Virus record (IMG/VR): IMGVR_UViG_3300034062_004592
Coordinates: 1 to 64,000 of that record
Source of the DNA: a virus
Taxonomy: Duplodnaviria > Caudoviricetes
Reading direction: 5' to 3' (one strand)
Length of the DNA: 64,000 bases
Position 1 is the first letter of the stretch. Every line of letters begins with the position of its first letter. Below the pieces are notes generated by a model that worked only from the letters and a program-made list of their open reading frames with translations, searched no databases and was not told the DNA's origin. The translations under genes were made by a program, and so were the position numbers. Below, one piece after another: positions 3,482 through 26,830 of the stretch.

Positions 3482-4468
3482 TCATTCCATTACAAACAGT
3501 TTGTTTGCAACGGTCTGAGGCTGAGCTTGGTTCAGGACGCGCCAAGCGTTCTGAGGATCGCGATTCATCATCTCGCCAAAAGTGCCCCAGAAATTCTCAG
3601 GTGCTTGCGGAGCAGCAGCTGTCGGGGGAGCAGGGAAGTTGCCAGCTTGGAACTGACCAATCGACTGAGTCGGATAACCGCGTGTCTCAAGTTCCTGCTC
3701 GTTTTCGTACACAGGGTACGGACCTTCAGGACCAAAAAACTTAAGCGTGTAATCGCTCAGGACATCGGGATTGGTAAGGATCTCGTTGTAGGCAAGATTC
3801 TCTTGATGCTCGTTAATGGCAAAATCAGCGTAACCCTTGATGGTATCAGCGGCGCGGTTTCCCCACGCGACGGCGCTGTCCAGCATTTGCTCCAGGTTTA
3901 GAGCGTAGTTGTTCAGCACTGCCGGAGCTTCGATCCCGAACGCGTCCATCACGTACCGACTGTCCTGGCTCATTCCCAGGAGGTCCGCCATTTGGGTTGC
4001 CGCCTCCTGCAAGGATTGATTGGAGGAGGTTGGGGAATAGCTGGGCGAGTATGCCTGGTTGGGAGACCAAGTCTGCGGAGCCGATTGTTGCGTAGCTTGG
4101 CTGCTGTACTGTCCGTAATTGGCCGGGGTATACGCCGTCGTCGGCGGCGATGGTTGACCCTGGAACGGGGATTGGACTGGTGCGCTCAGCAGATTCACCA
4201 CCTTGTTGAACGCCGATTCCCAGGGATTCCCCGCCGAGTCCGCCGCCGGTTGGGATTGGGGGGCGTACTGAGTAGGGCTGGATTGGTAGCTGGGGGCTGC
4301 CTGAGGTACCGCTTGGGGGTAACTGGTACCCACCTGATACGCCACCGGAGCCGGAGCCTGGTAACTGGCCGGAGCTGCTTGCGGTGCTGCCACCACGTAG
4401 CTGCTCGGCGCGACGGCCACTGGTGCTTGGCTCGTCTGTGGGATCGATTGGACGGTAGCGTCCTGCAT
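3482..4468 (-). CDS. putative capsid scaffolding/assembly protein
   Basis: Pro/Gln/Ala-rich N-terminus with a helical C-half; AGGAG SD upstream; sits between portal and capsid. Confidence 0.6.
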   Translation of the reverse strand: MQDATVQSIPQTSQAPVAVAPSSYVVAAPQAAPASYQAPAPVAYQVGTSYPQAVPQAAPSYQSSPTQYAPQSQPAADSAGNPWESAFNKVVNLLSAPVQSPFQGQPSPPTTAYTPANYGQYSSQATQQSAPQTWSPNQAYSPSYSPTSSNQSLQEAATQMADLLGMSQDSRYVMDAFGIEAPAVLNNYALNLEQMLDSAVAWGNRAADTIKGYADFAINEHQENLAYNEILTNPDVLSDYTLKFFGPEGPYPVYENEQELETRGYPTQSIGQFQAGNFPAPPTAAAPQAPENFWGTFGEMMNRDPQNAWRVLNQAQPQTVANKLFVME

Positions 4469-15342: not shown

Positions 15343-17394
15343 TTAGTTTCCAATTCCAAGTTGGCGCAAGATCATTTGTGGATCGCGTCCTTCGATTCTA
15401 CTTCGGCGCAAAGCTTCTGAAACGGCAAGTCCTTCTTGTGCCGCCCGGCGACGTTGCATTTCTCCTTGAAAAGATTGTTGAATACGACCAGTTGTTTTTT
15501 CGGCAGCAGCTTGAAGTTGCGGAGTGGTAAGTGACTCAAAACCACTACGCATTTGTTTACGCTGCAGCCAACCAGGTACATACGAAGGTTGGCGTTCAGA
15601 AGCGGCTGAATACTCACCTGTTGCTTTACTTACGGCGCCAGGTACATAAGCGGGTTCAATGCCGTAAACCCCAATACCGGCAGAGCCACCCGAAAGTTCA
15701 GGCTGAGGAGGTTTGTTAAGAAAACTGTATTTAATTTCTTGTTTTGATAATGCCGATTGGGGAATATCAGATGGCAAGGAAGCTGTAACACGGGCACTAC
15801 CGGGAATGTCGGGACCCATTTCGTCGGGCGCTCCATACACAAGTGGATCTCCTGTTCCTGTTAATTGACGTTCTCTCGTAATCGGCATAGCTTCGTAATA
15901 AGACGGCGATGCTCCACGAATTGCAGTGCCTGCTGCAGTGCTTGTAATTTGAGCTTGTGGTCCAATATTGACAACCGTCCGTTCAGGAACAAACCCCGTA
16001 GGATCTGCTCCAACTCCCACAACATCAACAGCTTTACGAACAGAAGACGGAAGAGAAATATCTACTTTACCAAGTTCTTGTAAACGTCTAAATTCTTGTG
16101 TACCAGGTTGAACGCCAGGTAGTGATTTTGTGGTCCACGATTGCGCTAATGCTCTCTCAAAGCGTTGAGTGCCTGGACGAAGACCGCGAGAAGCTAAGTC
16201 TTGGCGTAAAGCCATCATTTCTGTTTTGGCAATATCCGCCAGTTCTTGAGAAGACAAAGAACGTATTGCAGTTTGTTCTGCCTGATCAACAGGAAGGCCA
16301 TCTGGAAGTTGTGCAGCAATTTGATTGATTGAAGCATCTGCTTCATATCCAATCATTTCAGATGGATCTGCGTTTTGAATCATGGCTTGACGGTCAGCCT
16401 CCGCCATGTCCTCCATAAAGTCAACCCTAGAAAGGTTAATGTCTTCATTGCGCTGAAGCTGCTGCTTTACTCGTCCTGTTTGTTGATCTTCTGCGGCATC
16501 TAATGCATTAATTGTTTGGTCAACATTAAAAGTACGGGTAGTTTGCTGTTGATCTACTAGGGTTTCATTTTGAATTTCACTTACTAAATTCCAAAGATTT
16601 TTGCGTTGCTGCGAACGAACACTTGCCGCTTGTGTTGCAAGTTCACTCCTAGCGCTTTGATTGCTAAAAGCGGCAACCTCATCAATTAAATCACCAGCGG
16701 CTTGTTCCGCTGCACGATCTAAAATAGTTTGTTCAATGTAACCACGGCCTCCCAGTTGACTTGTTAGGAAGTCAGTGCCAGTGGTGCGAGCTGGCGGTAA
16801 AGCTTTAACTGCAGGAGCAGCTTGTTGTGCGGCTTTTGGCAATTGACCATAAGAAGGAGATTCCTGAAAAAAGCTTTGAATACCTTCTTGTGCTGTTGCA
16901 TTACGCGGATTAAGTACTCGATCGTTAATAGCTTTTAAAGCGGCACGCGCATTTTCCGGAGAAACCTCACTTAAATCAGCTTGGATGACGCCAGGCATTC
17001 TTTCGGACCTGGCTTGGCGCGTAGTCTCGGCCATTTTCCCCAAGCGATCCACCATTCCCCCAGGAGTGGGTTGTGAAGGGGGCGGTTGACTGGGAGCAGG
17101 CGCTGCTTGGTAGCGTTGCTGGGCGCCACGAACGTCAGCTTCTGCTTTTCGTCCAATATTGCCAAGATCTTCTACCGTAACTTTCTGCGTTGCTCCACGT
17201 GCGGCGCGATTTGCCAATAAACGGCGCCCACCAATTCCAGCAGCAACGCCAAGGCCAGCAACTAACGCCGTTTTACCCAAAAAATCAACTAATCCGCCAC
17301 CTTCGGACCCGGCTTCGTTCTGTCTTTCGTTTTCATATGCAGCTTGCGCCAAAAGTGCAGCTTGTAAATTAGGATCTTGGTAATATGAATTCAT
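15343..17394 (-). CDS. large putative internal virion protein
   Basis: 683 aa; N-terminal TM (ALVAGLGVAAGIGG); Gln/Ala/Pro-rich. Confidence 0.55.
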   Translation of the reverse strand: MNSYYQDPNLQAALLAQAAYENERQNEAGSEGGGLVDFLGKTALVAGLGVAAGIGGRRLLANRAARGATQKVTVEDLGNIGRKAEADVRGAQQRYQAAPAPSQPPPSQPTPGGMVDRLGKMAETTRQARSERMPGVIQADLSEVSPENARAALKAINDRVLNPRNATAQEGIQSFFQESPSYGQLPKAAQQAAPAVKALPPARTTGTDFLTSQLGGRGYIEQTILDRAAEQAAGDLIDEVAAFSNQSARSELATQAASVRSQQRKNLWNLVSEIQNETLVDQQQTTRTFNVDQTINALDAAEDQQTGRVKQQLQRNEDINLSRVDFMEDMAEADRQAMIQNADPSEMIGYEADASINQIAAQLPDGLPVDQAEQTAIRSLSSQELADIAKTEMMALRQDLASRGLRPGTQRFERALAQSWTTKSLPGVQPGTQEFRRLQELGKVDISLPSSVRKAVDVVGVGADPTGFVPERTVVNIGPQAQITSTAAGTAIRGASPSYYEAMPITRERQLTGTGDPLVYGAPDEMGPDIPGSARVTASLPSDIPQSALSKQEIKYSFLNKPPQPELSGGSAGIGVYGIEPAYVPGAVSKATGEYSAASERQPSYVPGWLQRKQMRSGFESLTTPQLQAAAEKTTGRIQQSFQGEMQRRRAAQEGLAVSEALRRSRIEGRDPQMILRQLGIGN

Positions 17395-17711: not shown

Positions 17712-17735
17712 AAATATAAGGACTTTTAAATATCG

Positions 17736-17762
17736 GCCGGGGCAAATGACCCCGGCTTTTTT
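17736..17762 (+). terminator. Rho-independent terminator
   Basis: GCCGGGG-CAAATGA-CCCCGGC-TTTTTT. Confidence 0.85.
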
Positions 17763-18223
17763 GTCTAAAAATTTGGGATAAACCTTGTTTTACATGACAC
17801 AATCGCACTTTTACTTAAAAGAGGGGCCCTATAGACCCCAAAAAGGGACTAGATTTTCCTGACGCTTCTCCACCCACCCACCCGAGTAGGGTCACGGGGA
17901 GAAAAAAAAGAATGTTGGGAGTGGCAGTGAGAGTAGGAGGGGGTGCGGTGGCACCAACAATCCCCTAACTACGTTATAACGATAGTGTTATACCCGCTCA
18001 CTTCGTTCGCTAGTGCGACGAGCGGGCAAATATATACTGTCGTCCCTACCAAGCCTCAGCCAACAGACAGAACCAACATCCTCGGCTGATACGATTTCGT
18101 ATCGCGCTGCGATATGCTTAGCTACACTCTCCTCCTGTTTTCAGGAAGAACTGTTGTCAATACTGGGTTTTCGGGGGCTGCGCATCCGTACAACGCAGAC
18201 ATTCCATTGCATTCAACTTTAAG

Positions 18224-18403
18224 ATGGACATCTTCTACACCATTGTTACCAAGGAAGCAGCGTATTACTTCGTTGCTAACTCACAGTACAACCTGGTGCG
18301 TATCACACGCTTAGTCCTCAAAGGACAGAAGGGATACCACCGTAGTACCACAATGTCAATCGACAATGGACGCGAGTTCGCTCGCAGACTAAAGGCCAAG
18401 TGA
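18224..18403 (+). CDS. early hypothetical protein (59 aa)
   Basis: Read by hand: MDIFYTIVTKEAAYYFVANSQYNLVRITRLVLKGQKGYHRSTTMSIDNGREFARRLKAK. Confidence 0.6.
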   Translation: MDIFYTIVTKEAAYYFVANSQYNLVRITRLVLKGQKGYHRSTTMSIDNGREFARRLKAK

Positions 18404-18471
18404 GTAATAACTCCCTGCCAGGTGTAAAGCCTGGCTTGGTCATTGCCCAGCACGTAGGGATGGGCTCCTAC
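18394..18471 (+). ncRNA. tRNA-like minihelix plus pseudoknot leader element, copy 1
   Basis: Acceptor-like GGCCAAG/CTTGGTC-A, T-arm CCAGG-TGTAAAG-CCTGG, then pseudoknot GCCCA/TGGGC with GTAGGG/TCCTAC. Confidence 0.6.
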
Positions 18472-18487
18472 ACAACAACTCAACACC

Positions 18488-18679
18488 ATGCGTTACCAAT
18501 TCCCTAATGCAGCCACAATTATTTGTGTTGCAGCATTGATCATTGGTGTAGGCACACAAGTGTCAGTGCATCAACTTGAAAAGGCAACAGCACAGCAATG
18601 TGCTAACCACGATTGGCCTAAGGAAGCACACGAGGTTCACATGGCCTGGTGTGCAGCCAATCAGTATCCAACCAACTGA
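18488..18679 (+). CDS. small membrane protein
   Basis: N-terminal TM; QCANHDWP..H..HMAWC..NQY motif. Confidence 0.65.
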   Translation: MRYQFPNAATIICVAALIIGVGTQVSVHQLEKATAQQCANHDWPKEAHEVHMAWCAANQYPTN

Positions 18680-18750
18680 GTACCAGGCGTGAGCCGGGGG
18701 ATCGAATCCCCCACTTAGTTATTGCCCAGCACGTAGGGATGGGCTCCTAC
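18674..18750 (+). ncRNA. tRNA-like minihelix plus pseudoknot leader element, copy 2
   Basis: AACTGAGT/ACTTAGTT-A, T-arm GGGGG-ATCGAAT-CCCCC, then the identical 30-nt ATTGCCCAGCACGTAGGGATGGGCTCCTAC. Confidence 0.6.
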
Positions 18751-18766
18751 GCAACTCAGTTCAACC

Positions 18767-18925
18767 ATGGCTATTCGTAAGACTCTTGCTCAACAATTCT
18801 CTAAGGCTGCCAAGGCTTTGGAGAATGACAAGAGCAAGGAACGACTGGGCGCAGCAGTAATTGTTGCACGTGTGGCTTTGGCTAACACGATCATGCCCAA
18901 GAAGTTTAACTACCCAACCAGGTGA
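18767..18925 (+). CDS. early hypothetical protein (52 aa)
   Basis: Read by hand: MAIRKTLAQQFSKAAKALENDKSKERLGAAVIVARVALANTIMPKKFNYPTR. Confidence 0.6.
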   Translation: MAIRKTLAQQFSKAAKALENDKSKERLGAAVIVARVALANTIMPKKFNYPTR

Positions 18926-18944
18926 GTAATAGCTCCCAAGCCAG

Positions 18945-19031
18945 GTGCAATACGATGCTTACTGTGATCTCTACCCGAATGCTTGGATAGAGATTGTAAG
19001 CAAGGGAGACTACGATTCAGTAGTCAAATAG
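18945..19031 (+). pseudogene. 3' remnant of a gene fused to a truncated tRNA-like element
   Basis: Frame reads (V)QYDAYCDLYPNAWIEIVSKGDYDSVVK*, starting inside the broken T-loop of element copy 3. Confidence 0.4.
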
Positions 19032-19599: not shown

Positions 19600-19671
19600 T
19601 TCTGTACTTAACCTTCCGTTGATACGAATTCGTATCGGCGGTAGGTTTTCTACAGGACTCAACATCCTGTA
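19600..19671 (+). promoter_or_regulatory. RNase III-type hairpin with alternative 3' hairpin, copy 2
   Basis: TTCTGTA..AACCT..GATACGAATTCGTATC..AGGTT..TACAGGA; alternative TACAGGA-CTCAACA-TCCTGTA. Confidence 0.55.
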
Positions 19672-20074: not shown

Positions 20075-20131
20075 TCCTGCATCAAGGGCCTTGGGTTACC
20101 GGGGCCTTTCTTGCAGGACTCAACATCCTGT
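20075..20131 (+). promoter_or_regulatory. RNase III-type hairpin with alternative 3' hairpin, copy 3
   Basis: TCCTGCA..AAGGGCCTTGG-GTTA-CCGGGGCCTTT..TGCAGGA; alternative CAGGA-CTCAACA-TCCTG. Confidence 0.55.
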
Positions 20132-21476: not shown

Positions 21477-21674
21477 ATGAAAGACCCTGACTTCATTGAT
21501 GAACAACGCAATGCCGATGCCCTTGACGCAATGGCTGATCGTATATACGAATTGGAAGAAGCCATGCGTGAAGCAGAGCAAGATGGTTGGACAGGCGTTT
21601 TCAATGATGAGATATCAAATGAAGAACGCTACGCATGTGACCATTACAACGAGAGGTATGTAATCAATGACTGA
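21477..21674 (+). CDS. acidic hypothetical protein
   Basis: 65-aa ORF after the pseudoknot. Confidence 0.6.
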   Translation: MKDPDFIDEQRNADALDAMADRIYELEEAMREAEQDGWTGVFNDEISNEERYACDHYNERYVIND

Positions 21675-26094: not shown

Positions 26095-26149
26095 TTGCTG
26101 AAGCCACAGCAGGGCCATCGTATTCTCGTTATAGGTGGCCCTTTCTCTA

Positions 26150-26377
26150 ATGCCTGATTACACTGACGATCAACTACTTGCCATGGCAATGGCAAATCTT
26201 GGTGAGTACATCCATGACAACTCACCACATTACATTCTGATTGAAGAAGATCCTCGCAATGAGGATGACTACGATACGTGGAGTTATGGCTGTGAGCCAT
26301 TGCCACATGATCACACTTGGCAACACACATCAATTGATGTGAGTGTAAGCCCAAGTGATGGGGACATGGCGGAATAG
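26150..26377 (+). CDS. acidic hypothetical protein
   Basis: MPDYTDDQLLAMAM...; the 3' end runs into the tRNA. Confidence 0.5.
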   Translation: MPDYTDDQLLAMAMANLGEYIHDNSPHYILIEEDPRNEDDYDTWSYGCEPLPHDHTWQHTSIDVSVSPSDGDMAE

Positions 26378-26445
26378 GTAGACGCAACGGACTTAAAATC
26401 CGTAGGCCATTGGCTGTGAGAGTTCAAGCCTCTCTGTCCCTACCA
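26360..26445 (+). tRNA. trnL: tRNA-Leu (UAA)
   Basis: GGGGACA/TGTCCCT acceptor, D arm TGGCGGAATAGGTAGACGC, anticodon arm ACGGA-CTTAAAA-TCCGT, long variable arm, T arm GAGAG-TTCAAGC-CTCTC, encoded ACCA. Confidence 0.95.
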
Positions 26446-26467
26446 ACCCATACAACAGCTCAACACC

Positions 26468-26830
26468 ATGTCAATCTTTGCTTGCTTTAAGTACATCATC
26501 CCTGAGTTCCATGCATTCAGTGATGACGACAATCGTTACAACCTTGGTGCAACATGGACTGCACAAGATGGACTCAAGGATTATCACAACCTTGAACTAA
26601 GGTATGTCCATAACTCAGAGCGGCTTGCGCTCCAGGGGGATCCACAGCCTGATGGCTCATGGCGTTACGTGGAAGCCAACGGTTCCGTTCATACCATCTC
26701 ACCTGAACGTGCCAAGCATTTCATGGAGCAGACTCATCAGCATGCCACGATCATGTGTGCCATGCTCGACAAGCTTAAAGAGTCAGGGGTTATGAACGAA
26801 CCACTGGACACCCAAGCCAGCCCAGCTTAA
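26468..26830 (+). CDS. hypothetical protein
   Basis: 120-aa ORF with CTCAACACC leader. Confidence 0.6.
   Translation: MSIFACFKYIIPEFHAFSDDDNRYNLGATWTAQDGLKDYHNLELRYVHNSERLALQGDPQPDGSWRYVEANGSVHTISPERAKHFMEQTHQHATIMCAMLDKLKESGVMNEPLDTQASPA

Follow-up and report, generated by a model that had tools for sequence, protein, structure and literature searches.

A family of tRNA-like spacer cassettes in cyanophage genomes as candidate sites of mRNA processing

Transfer RNA (tRNA) shapes serve as cut marks for ribonuclease (RNase) P and RNase Z in the tRNA punctuation of animal mitochondria and in the mascRNA of the nuclear MALAT1 transcript. Here we describe a family of structured spacer cassettes encountered in IMG/VR virus record IMGVR_UViG_3300034062_004592 (Duplodnaviria; Caudoviricetes), a complete record of 85,462 bp whose first 64 kb (positions 1 to 64,000, hereafter the window) were analysed and whose sole named relative is Synechococcus phage S-EIVl (~75% identity in patches). 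Two cassettes of ~78 nt, at 18394-18471 and 18674-18750, occupy the first and second spacers of a plus-strand operon. Each is laid out as an acceptor-like stem on a T-arm with a 7-nt loop (module 1, or minihelix), a linker A-U-U, and then a pseudoknot or, in other members of the family, a hairpin (module 2). Mitochondrial punctuation and mascRNA rely on full tRNAs or cloverleaf mimics, whereas the cassettes are a minimal mimic and occur in a bacterial virus.

Plant mitochondrial t-elements, as described by Forner et al. (2007, PMC1920247), resemble the cassettes in being non-canonical tRNA-like structures with a conserved T-arm inside messenger RNA (mRNA) precursors. The mRNA ends described there are made by RNase Z and RNase P cuts, stop-less mRNAs included, and the t-elements were sought with the T-arm motif GGTTCRANYCC (PMC1920247). 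The borders of t-elements coincide with mRNA 5' and 3' ends, gene-internal 3' ends included (PMC1920247), whereas the cassettes are known here from sequence alone. According to the same source, t-elements are degenerate cloverleaves of ~74 nt that derive from tRNA genes and occur singly, scattered in the organelle genome. The cassettes, in contrast, are anticodon-less top halves of 45-50 nt, arranged in tandem, variably split between their two helices and always coupled to a second structure.

Among phages, the early operon of T7 has structured spacers that are cut by host RNase III and leave stabilising hairpins behind. The cassettes are likewise structured early-gene spacers in a phage polycistron, although the T7 sites are long duplexes with internal loops and the cassettes are a tRNA-like stack plus knot with another presumed enzyme. 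In T4-type phages, PeSL elements, which join an early promoter to a stem-loop, flank small early open reading frames (ORFs) in a plastic region and are linked to gene shuffling. Repetition at small early ORFs is common to both, but the cassettes have no promoter-like site and their helices covary as RNA.

Whatever their mechanism, the cassettes are well supported by the comparison of relatives set out below as a structured RNA family that is new, occurs in cyanophages of fresh and marine waters and brings with it a small pseudoknot that is also new. As for function, we propose, with a probability of roughly 45%, that the cassette is a tRNA-mimic processing site which host RNase Z would cut after the discriminator-like A, with structured RNA ends as the result. 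The parts of the cassettes in the window are as follows, with class A and class B denoting T-loops of the form NUCRANY and UGCAAAC-like T-loops, respectively.

18394..18441, plus strand: minihelix 1, class B subtype, with an acceptor of 7 bp, hairpin 1 and a T-arm of 5 bp
18394-18400 with 18435-18441, plus strand: acceptor of copy 1, GGCCAAG / CTTGGTC
18402-18413, plus strand: hairpin 1 of copy 1, GAGT/ACTC
18418-18434, plus strand: T-arm of copy 1, CCAGG-TGTAAAG-CCTGG (loop UGUAAAG)
18442..18444, plus strand: linker A-U-U of cassette 1 (A 18442, TT 18443-18444), the A being 12 nt past the T-loop
18445..18471, plus strand: pseudoknot copy 1, with stem S1 GCCC 18445-18448 / GGGC 18462-18465
18454-18458 with 18467-18471, plus strand: stem S2 of pseudoknot copy 1, GUAGG / CCUAC
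18472..18487, plus strand: CA-rich unstructured leader of 16 nt before ATG 18488, also present in relatives
18674..18720, plus strand: minihelix 2, class A, with an acceptor of 7-8 bp
18674-18681 with 18713-18720, plus strand: acceptor of copy 2, AACTGAGT / ACTTAGTT
Within minihelix 2, plus strand: hairpin of copy 2, GGC-GUGA-GCC
18696-18712, plus strand: T-arm of copy 2, GGGGG-AUCGAAU-CCCCC
18721..18723, plus strand: linker A-U-U of cassette 2 (A 18721, TT 18722-18723), the 13-nt variant, TATT
18724..18750, plus strand: pseudoknot copy 2, identical to copy 1
18916..18952, plus strand: remnant, the 5' half of a class B cassette with acceptor strand, hairpin 1, 5' T-stem strand AGCCAGG and loop UGCAAU

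The isolated minihelices fold as described (z-scores of -4.1 for copy 1 and -4.6 for copy 2), and none of 200 shuffled sequences was as stable. Everything that the initial annotation of this stretch stated about the letters of the two spacers (acceptor-like stem, T-arm, small hairpin and unpaired A) holds. The string of 29 nt made up of TT plus pseudoknot is an exact repeat, as had been noted, with exactly two copies in the 85,462-bp genome (18443-18471 and 18722-18750) and 0 in 100 shuffles, and each copy stops 16 nt short of the next ATG (18488 and 18767). The upstream stop codons were also placed correctly, with TGA 18401-18403 and TGA 18677-18679 in or abutting the 5' acceptor strands. In the third spacer the remnant lacks its 3' half, and an unrelated long hairpin then reaches to ~19060 (fold z-score -4.4). 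Its intact counterparts are found in relatives L088, L034 and L106, and it is a decayed cassette copy; these three relatives, together with L077 and L096, also carry the subtype of minihelix 1.

In order to assemble the family, 13 IMG/VR loci were collected through homologues of the 63-aa gene that follows cassette 1, and 122 stretches through a scan with the common motif of the knot. A finder for a 5-7 bp stem with a 7-nt loop, followed 3-9 nt on by ATT[AG]C[CT], returned 230 unique candidates. A T-loop-like loop, N[U/G][C/U]RANN, is present in 203 of these ATT-anchored candidates from IMG/VR relatives, 132 of them in class B (window copy 1 belongs to a subtype) and 71 in class A (window copy 2 included). 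The insert between the acceptor and T-arm strands is variable and may be a GNRA-type hairpin, a 5-bp hairpin or only 8 nt with GG. Module 2 begins 2-3 nt past the A and is a knot in 119 of the 203, a hairpin in 70 and of another kind in 14.

Covariation among the relatives extends to the helices of the minihelix and to both stems of the knot, and here the expectation raised by the initial annotation was borne out. In 72 ungapped class B sequences, 97.5% of cells are paired and 0 of 500 shuffles did as well; the T stem alone is paired in 100% of cells, with both sides changed in six of its seven pairs. The 27 class A sequences are paired in 91.9% of cells. With this many independent stem sequences, structure is the only reasonable reading. 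A class B covariance model built without any window sequence (R1) recovers copy 1 (18394-18444) at 20.9 bits, with E 7e-4 in 405 kb. Apart from one marginal match at E 0.02, it otherwise matches only in two podoviruses and in the cassette clusters of four further genomes. Rfam 15 gave no match at or near the gathering score on the cassettes, whether in the window, in the region at E<=10, in four related loci or in phage S-SBP1.

The pseudoknot pairs in 97.2% of cells across 110 sequences from relatives, with double changes in four of eight pairs and 0 of 500 shuffles as good, and sliding the partners by 1-3 columns lowered pairing to 57% or less. In S1, G-C is replaced by A-U in 33 rows and C-G by U-A in 36; in S2, double changes at two pairs replace C-G by U-A or A-U in nine rows and G-C by A-U, C-G or U-A in 13. 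Two helices in crossing order, each with compensatory change, are what an H-type pseudoknot requires. Its stems are of 4 bp and its loops of 3, 4 (AGAU) and 1 (A) nt, the last of them short for spanning such a stem. The 5' pseudoknot of the initial annotation has the support of covariation in both stems, but it is not a constant of the family: its replacement by a hairpin in 70 of 203 cassettes suggests that a generic structure, rather than a specific knot, is what is needed. In phage T4, the gene 32 mRNA carries a small 5' pseudoknot that nucleates autoregulation by gp32. The cassette knot is similar in being small and in its predicted position at a processed 5' end of a phage mRNA before an unstructured leader; it differs in that there is no likeness of sequence or loop length and that it can be replaced by hairpins.

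The likeness of module 1 to tRNA was assessed from loop and helix geometry. Among 130 cassettes chosen only by knot presence, 128 have the T-loop pattern N[U/G][C/U]RANN (3% expected by chance), with A58 in 128, C56 in 122 and R57 in 129. The distance from the loop to the A of AUU, for which 8-16 nt was allowed, is 12 nt in 172 of the 203 cassettes, 13 nt in 30 and 11 nt in one, and this 12-nt ruler is kept despite splits of 7+5, 6+6, 5+7 and 4+7. When perfect stacks were taken without demanding ATT, 182 were of 12 bp, 52 of 13 bp and nine of 14 bp; the 12-bp stacks are followed by ATT in 122 of 182 cases and by CTT in 13. The stacked acceptor/T-arm, the T-loop consensus and the unpaired position 73 are shared with tRNA (RF00005) and with the tRNA-like domain of transfer-messenger RNA (tmRNA), whereas the cassettes have no D or anticodon arm and their 3' end runs on into module 2. 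A 12-bp acceptor/T-arm stack, the T-loop consensus and an unpaired position 73 are also what structurally characterises a processing element of the t-element kind, and the cassettes show all three. We regard it as well supported that the 12 stacked pairs, T-loop and unpaired base at position 73 have the geometry of the acceptor/T half of a tRNA. There is a hint, from three informative cases, of tertiary covariation between the loop of hairpin 1 and T-loop position 55.

RNase Z, RNase P and the CCA-adding enzyme all read this surface of tRNA. The tRNA-like shape is also the one feature that speaks for a role of released minihelices as decoys for, or substrates of, tRNA-directed host defences or tRNA enzymes, as the initial annotation had suggested for defences. 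We find this barely credible: the missing anticodon arm leaves no target for anticodon nucleases, identity elements such as G3:U70 were not seen, and the cassettes number only 2-5 copies per genome and are bound to gene boundaries.

The cassettes are without exception spacer elements of the gene strand, and each genome has a single cluster of them, 0.7-1.3 kb long, where the operon begins; five genomes have 2 (the window, plus its remnant), 4, 4, 5 and 2 cassettes. The initial annotation had them punctuating the early operon. This stands insofar as they are on the sense strand, intergenic and between the first cistrons, but the clusters mark only the first 2-5 tiny genes and not the whole operon. 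In 198 cassettes, the upstream stop is TGA in 158, TAA in 35 and TAG in five, and in 157 it starts at acceptor position +2 to +8. Next to the 63-aa gene, one and the same syntenic spacer holds class A or class B, and a knot or a hairpin, depending on the genome, which argues that the variants are functionally equivalent. A host origin was rejected, since the pattern of ATT plus knot was found only in two short contigs of metagenome-assembled genomes (pond and lake) among 185,579 prokaryote species genomes.

Two T7-like cyanopodoviruses, S-SBP1 and S-CBP3, have a class B minihelix as well (38 and 25 bits, respectively, with model R1). There it shows the 12-nt ruler, AUU and then a hairpin, immediately follows a tiny ORF and has the major capsid gene downstream of it. 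The region from psbA to the major capsid gene of marine cyanopodoviruses (L160, S-SBP1, 1347-1660; L161, S-CBP3, 560-880; L162, Prochlorococcus podovirus NATL2A-133, 650-800) contains, in order, a sub-threshold match to the Glutamine-II riboswitch (19.6 vs 33 bits), a tiny unannotated ORF, the minihelix or a plain hairpin, ATT, and a long hairpin plus GUCAUGACGGUGGGAUAGACCAC; the last element is kept in 19 records. Another sub-threshold riboswitch match, to SAM_alpha in an IMG/VR relative (L060, 56-121; 22 vs 36 bits, E 0.3), is probably due to chance.

Such a distribution raises the question of whether the repeated spacers serve chiefly for modular shuffling of small early genes, with any RNA function secondary. 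The same gene has different neighbours and cassette classes across genomes, knots are identical within the window genome and different in relatives, a half-cassette remnant persists at 18916-18952, and the minihelix is found in an unrelated podovirus family too. Recombination between cassettes clearly happens, and it is compatible with any RNA function. As the chief purpose of the cassettes, however, it is highly improbable, given compensatory changes in every helix, which reveal selection at the RNA level, and cassettes free of any promoter-like site.

From the structure, conservation, geometry and placement observed here, we infer each enzymatic step of the processing that we favour. Module 1 would act as an acceptor/T-arm mimic, with a coaxial stack of 12 bp, a T-loop-like loop of 7 nt at its tip and an unpaired A at the discriminator position; the small hairpin or the 8-nt GG-containing strand would stand in for the D and anticodon arms. 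Host RNase Z, reading only the acceptor stem and T-arm, would cleave after the A (between 18442 and 18443, and between 18721 and 18722), and RNase P might also cleave on the 5' side. An immediate-early polycistron would in this manner be converted to monocistronic mRNAs. The upstream mRNA would retain its stop codon, and its tRNA-like 3' structure would halt 3' exonucleases. The next mRNA would start with 5'-P-UU and, two nucleotides on, a compact stable fold (the pseudoknot in the window, a hairpin in a third of relatives), so that its 5' end would be hidden from 5' sensing by RNase E and from RNase J.

Some background is consistent with this proposal. A U after the discriminator is a preferred context for RNase Z, and 5' stem-loops blunt 5'-end-dependent decay. 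The substrate contacts of RNase Z described in PMC7479834 are to the T-arm and acceptor stem only. A reliance of cyanobacteria on 5'-sensing RNase E and RNase J is indicated in PMC8682795 and PMC10939160, and cuts by RNase P in some bacterial operon mRNAs and phage RNAs are mentioned in PMC11143913. Within the same operon, a tRNA-Leu(UAA) with a genomically encoded CCA occupies 26360-26445 in a later spacer (flanks 26135-26470). The transcript must thus be cut by tRNA enzymes at least there. We favour a cut by RNase Z after the A because it keeps the upstream stop codon, leaves a compact 3' structure, and puts no more than UU ahead of the stable fold of the next mRNA.

The unpaired AUU is also where a different nuclease could act. 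A single-stranded AUU between two clamps might be cut by host RNase E, with the terminating ribosome possibly melting the acceptor stem and the tRNA likeness incidental. Marine cyanophages exploit RNase E. The preference of the cyanobacterial enzyme, as given in PMC8682795, is for U at +2, A at -3/-4 and single-stranded RNA, and a cut after the A would place a U at +2. The UU is kept more than the A in the 12-bp stacks tallied above, and NATL2A-133 has a plain hairpin before ATT. Against this, just 3 nt are unpaired and the positions upstream are paired, the A-U clamp spans ~7 nt, and neither the T-loop consensus (128 of 130) nor the 12-nt ruler across different helix splits would have a reason. 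We consider a cut by RNase E at AUU unlikely as the function of the cassettes.

A translational feature accompanies many cassettes of relatives. This third covarying element is a short hairpin that contains both GGAG and the start codon (CAGGAGAUUCCUGUG, CAUGGAGAUAUCCAUG and CACGGAGAACACCGUG; for example at L014:1980-2030, L005:2734-2790 and L018:1345-1400), which would occlude the ribosome binding site; none was found at the two cassettes of the window. The cassette could be an uncut insulator or stabiliser acting in cis together with a translation module, the minihelix stalling 3' exonucleases or uncoupling cistrons and module 2 setting the next initiation with the CA-rich leader or the GGAG/start hairpin. 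The position of the upstream stop at acceptor +2 to +8 links termination to structure, the knot motif holds GGAGAU, many downstream genes have the covarying start-codon hairpin, and the types of module 2 are interchangeable. The stop-codon linkage, the GGAGAU and the start-codon hairpins do favour some translational role. A generic roadblock, however, requires neither a T-loop sequence nor a fixed 12-bp geometry, and GGAG is missing from the knot variant of the window, so that an entirely uncut module strikes us as improbable.

Several observations weigh against processing by RNase Z as proposed here. The bare shape is not rare, since a loose descriptor (acceptor, gap and a 5-7 bp stem with a 7-nt loop) gave 31 rows on the plus strand and 30 on the minus strand of the genome, a few rows being alternative splits of one site; such frequency by chance means that the case rests on the relatives and not on the window alone. 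The frequency of knots is inflated and variation in S2 under-sampled, because most loci were fished by the motif of the knot itself, and the shuffle tests ignore relatedness. The third loop of the knot, a single A, is tight for a classical coaxial H-type fold, and its 4-5-bp helices may pack differently or alternate. Class B loops have G, not U, at position 55. The tRNA model RF00005 aligns with copy 2 from end to end (model 1-71) with the D and anticodon arms deleted, scoring 14.5 bits against a gathering threshold of 29, and ARAGORN called only the tRNA-Leu in the window and nothing in 26 related loci, leaving the cassettes uncalled; on the same two results they were rejected as tRNA genes or tmRNA. 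Before its ATT and the conserved downstream element, NATL2A-133 has a plain 10-bp hairpin, and tRNA likeness is therefore not obligatory there. No module 2 or other protective structure follows the tRNA-Leu, which shows that a 5' structure is not indispensable. A cut by RNase P at +1 would remove or break the upstream stop in 178 of 198 cassettes, a cost that makes a 3'-only cut of the RNase Z type more economical. With these points we also list a run that may be of RNA (its RNA label is guessed; contigs, 7% of words), in which seven short contigs of relatives were found. One spans a relative's minihelix, junction and knot, but contigs cannot show ends or strand, and the run is evidence neither way.

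A more far-reaching version is conceivable, in which phages have evolved a tRNA punctuation of their own. Anticodon-less mimics set in immediate-early stop codons would recruit RNase Z and the CCA-adding enzyme, giving tRNA-like and possibly CCA-tailed 3' ends, knotted 5' ends and processing coupled to translation by ribosomes that terminate within the acceptor stem, and would have spread between unrelated cyanophage lineages. Taken as a whole, this version is on the unlikely side.

Other identities were tried and rejected. A self-cleaving ribozyme (hammerhead, pistol, twister or hatchet) was dismissed because, although the 5' strand has a hammerhead-like CUGA, the core is incomplete and there was no Rfam ribozyme match at E<=10. 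An intrinsic terminator is contradicted by the lack of a U tract; the terminator scan flagged only the T-arm of copy 2 with the tail ACTTAGTTAT, which is a base-paired acceptor strand across the family. A promoter cassette was discarded, with no sigma-70-type promoter-like site in 18394-18471 or 18674-18750. Read-through of the TGA would meet an in-frame TAA within eight codons. A start codon or peptide in the knot was likewise rejected, as the ATG of the knot shares the frame of the downstream ORF in no more than 32 of 76 cases and half of the knots have ATA. The deposited start of one S-EIVl coding sequence, AHV82201.1 (L001 4188-4424), is the ATG inside the pseudoknot; the more likely start is a GTG 27 nt downstream, which is preceded by AGGAG.

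No published description of such cassettes was found in the literature on S-EIVl, on tRNA-like spacers of cyanophages or on RNase Z and tRNA punctuation in phages, and a 2023 catalogue of 8,495 candidate RNAs from IMG/VR (PMC10690425) could contain the motif. The principle is known from organelles. What is new is a minimal, anticodon-less and variably split mimic in tandem phage cassettes, together with a second, putatively protective structure. Punctuation by tRNA mimics has so far been a matter of mitochondria and a few nuclear RNAs, and cutting as proposed would make the cassettes the first case, in phages or bacteria, of an mRNA operon with a dedicated punctuation by tRNA mimics. They would then also offer natural minimal substrates of 45-50 nt (7+5, 6+6 and 5+7) on which the measurement of the acceptor/T stack by RNase Z, RNase P and the CCA-adding enzyme could be studied, and a compact part for processed, insulated operons in cyanobacteria.

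The genomic setting of the cassettes is an operon read as early from its layout. A block of minus-strand genes stops at 17394, and a run of small plus-strand ORFs starts after ~470 nt free of ORFs and continues into ThyX, DNA polymerase A, SSB and primase. The features at its head are as follows.

17735-17757: true terminator, between the minus-strand block and the plus-strand run
18224..18403, plus strand: first small ORF, 59 aa, with TGA 18401-18403 in or adjoining the 5' acceptor strand of cassette 1
18488..18679, plus strand: 63-aa ORF, with TGA 18677-18679 within the acceptor strand of cassette 2
18767..18925, plus strand: 52-aa ORF, 3' of cassette 2, with TGA 18923-18925 within the remnant cassette

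The 59-aa ORF has no PHROG or Pfam family, the product of the 63-aa ORF appears to have a hydrophobic N-terminal stretch, and none of ten ORFs near the cassettes and the tRNA received a PHROG function. No RNA-processing enzyme encoded by the phage was found in a Pfam scan of 59 ORFs. Upstream of the tRNA-Leu, a called ORF of 80 aa (26135-26377) would terminate within the tRNA, and the tRNA is followed by a leader (…ACAACAGCTCAACACCATG) that hardly differs from that of cassette 1.

Further repeated or shared structures were seen in the operon. A hairpin CUGCG-N11-CGCAG, preceded by GGGG, is situated at 18178-18198, ~25 nt 5' of the first ORF of the operon, and is common to S-EIVl (L001, about 3831-3860) and an IMG/VR relative (L061). 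The ORF-free region ends there, and the hairpin possibly forms the 5' stem-loop of the primary transcript. A second repeated spacer hairpin (ACAGGACTCAACATCCTGT) is found at 19646-19670 and 20107-20131, before two later ORFs, and later spacers thus use another repeated element. Finally, between 21630 and 31500 there are several families of direct repeats of 30-55 nt, such as CAATGACTGAAC…GCAGGCGGTG at 21668, 27216, 27407 and 31000, which suggest paralogous small genes or repeated gene starts in the operon.

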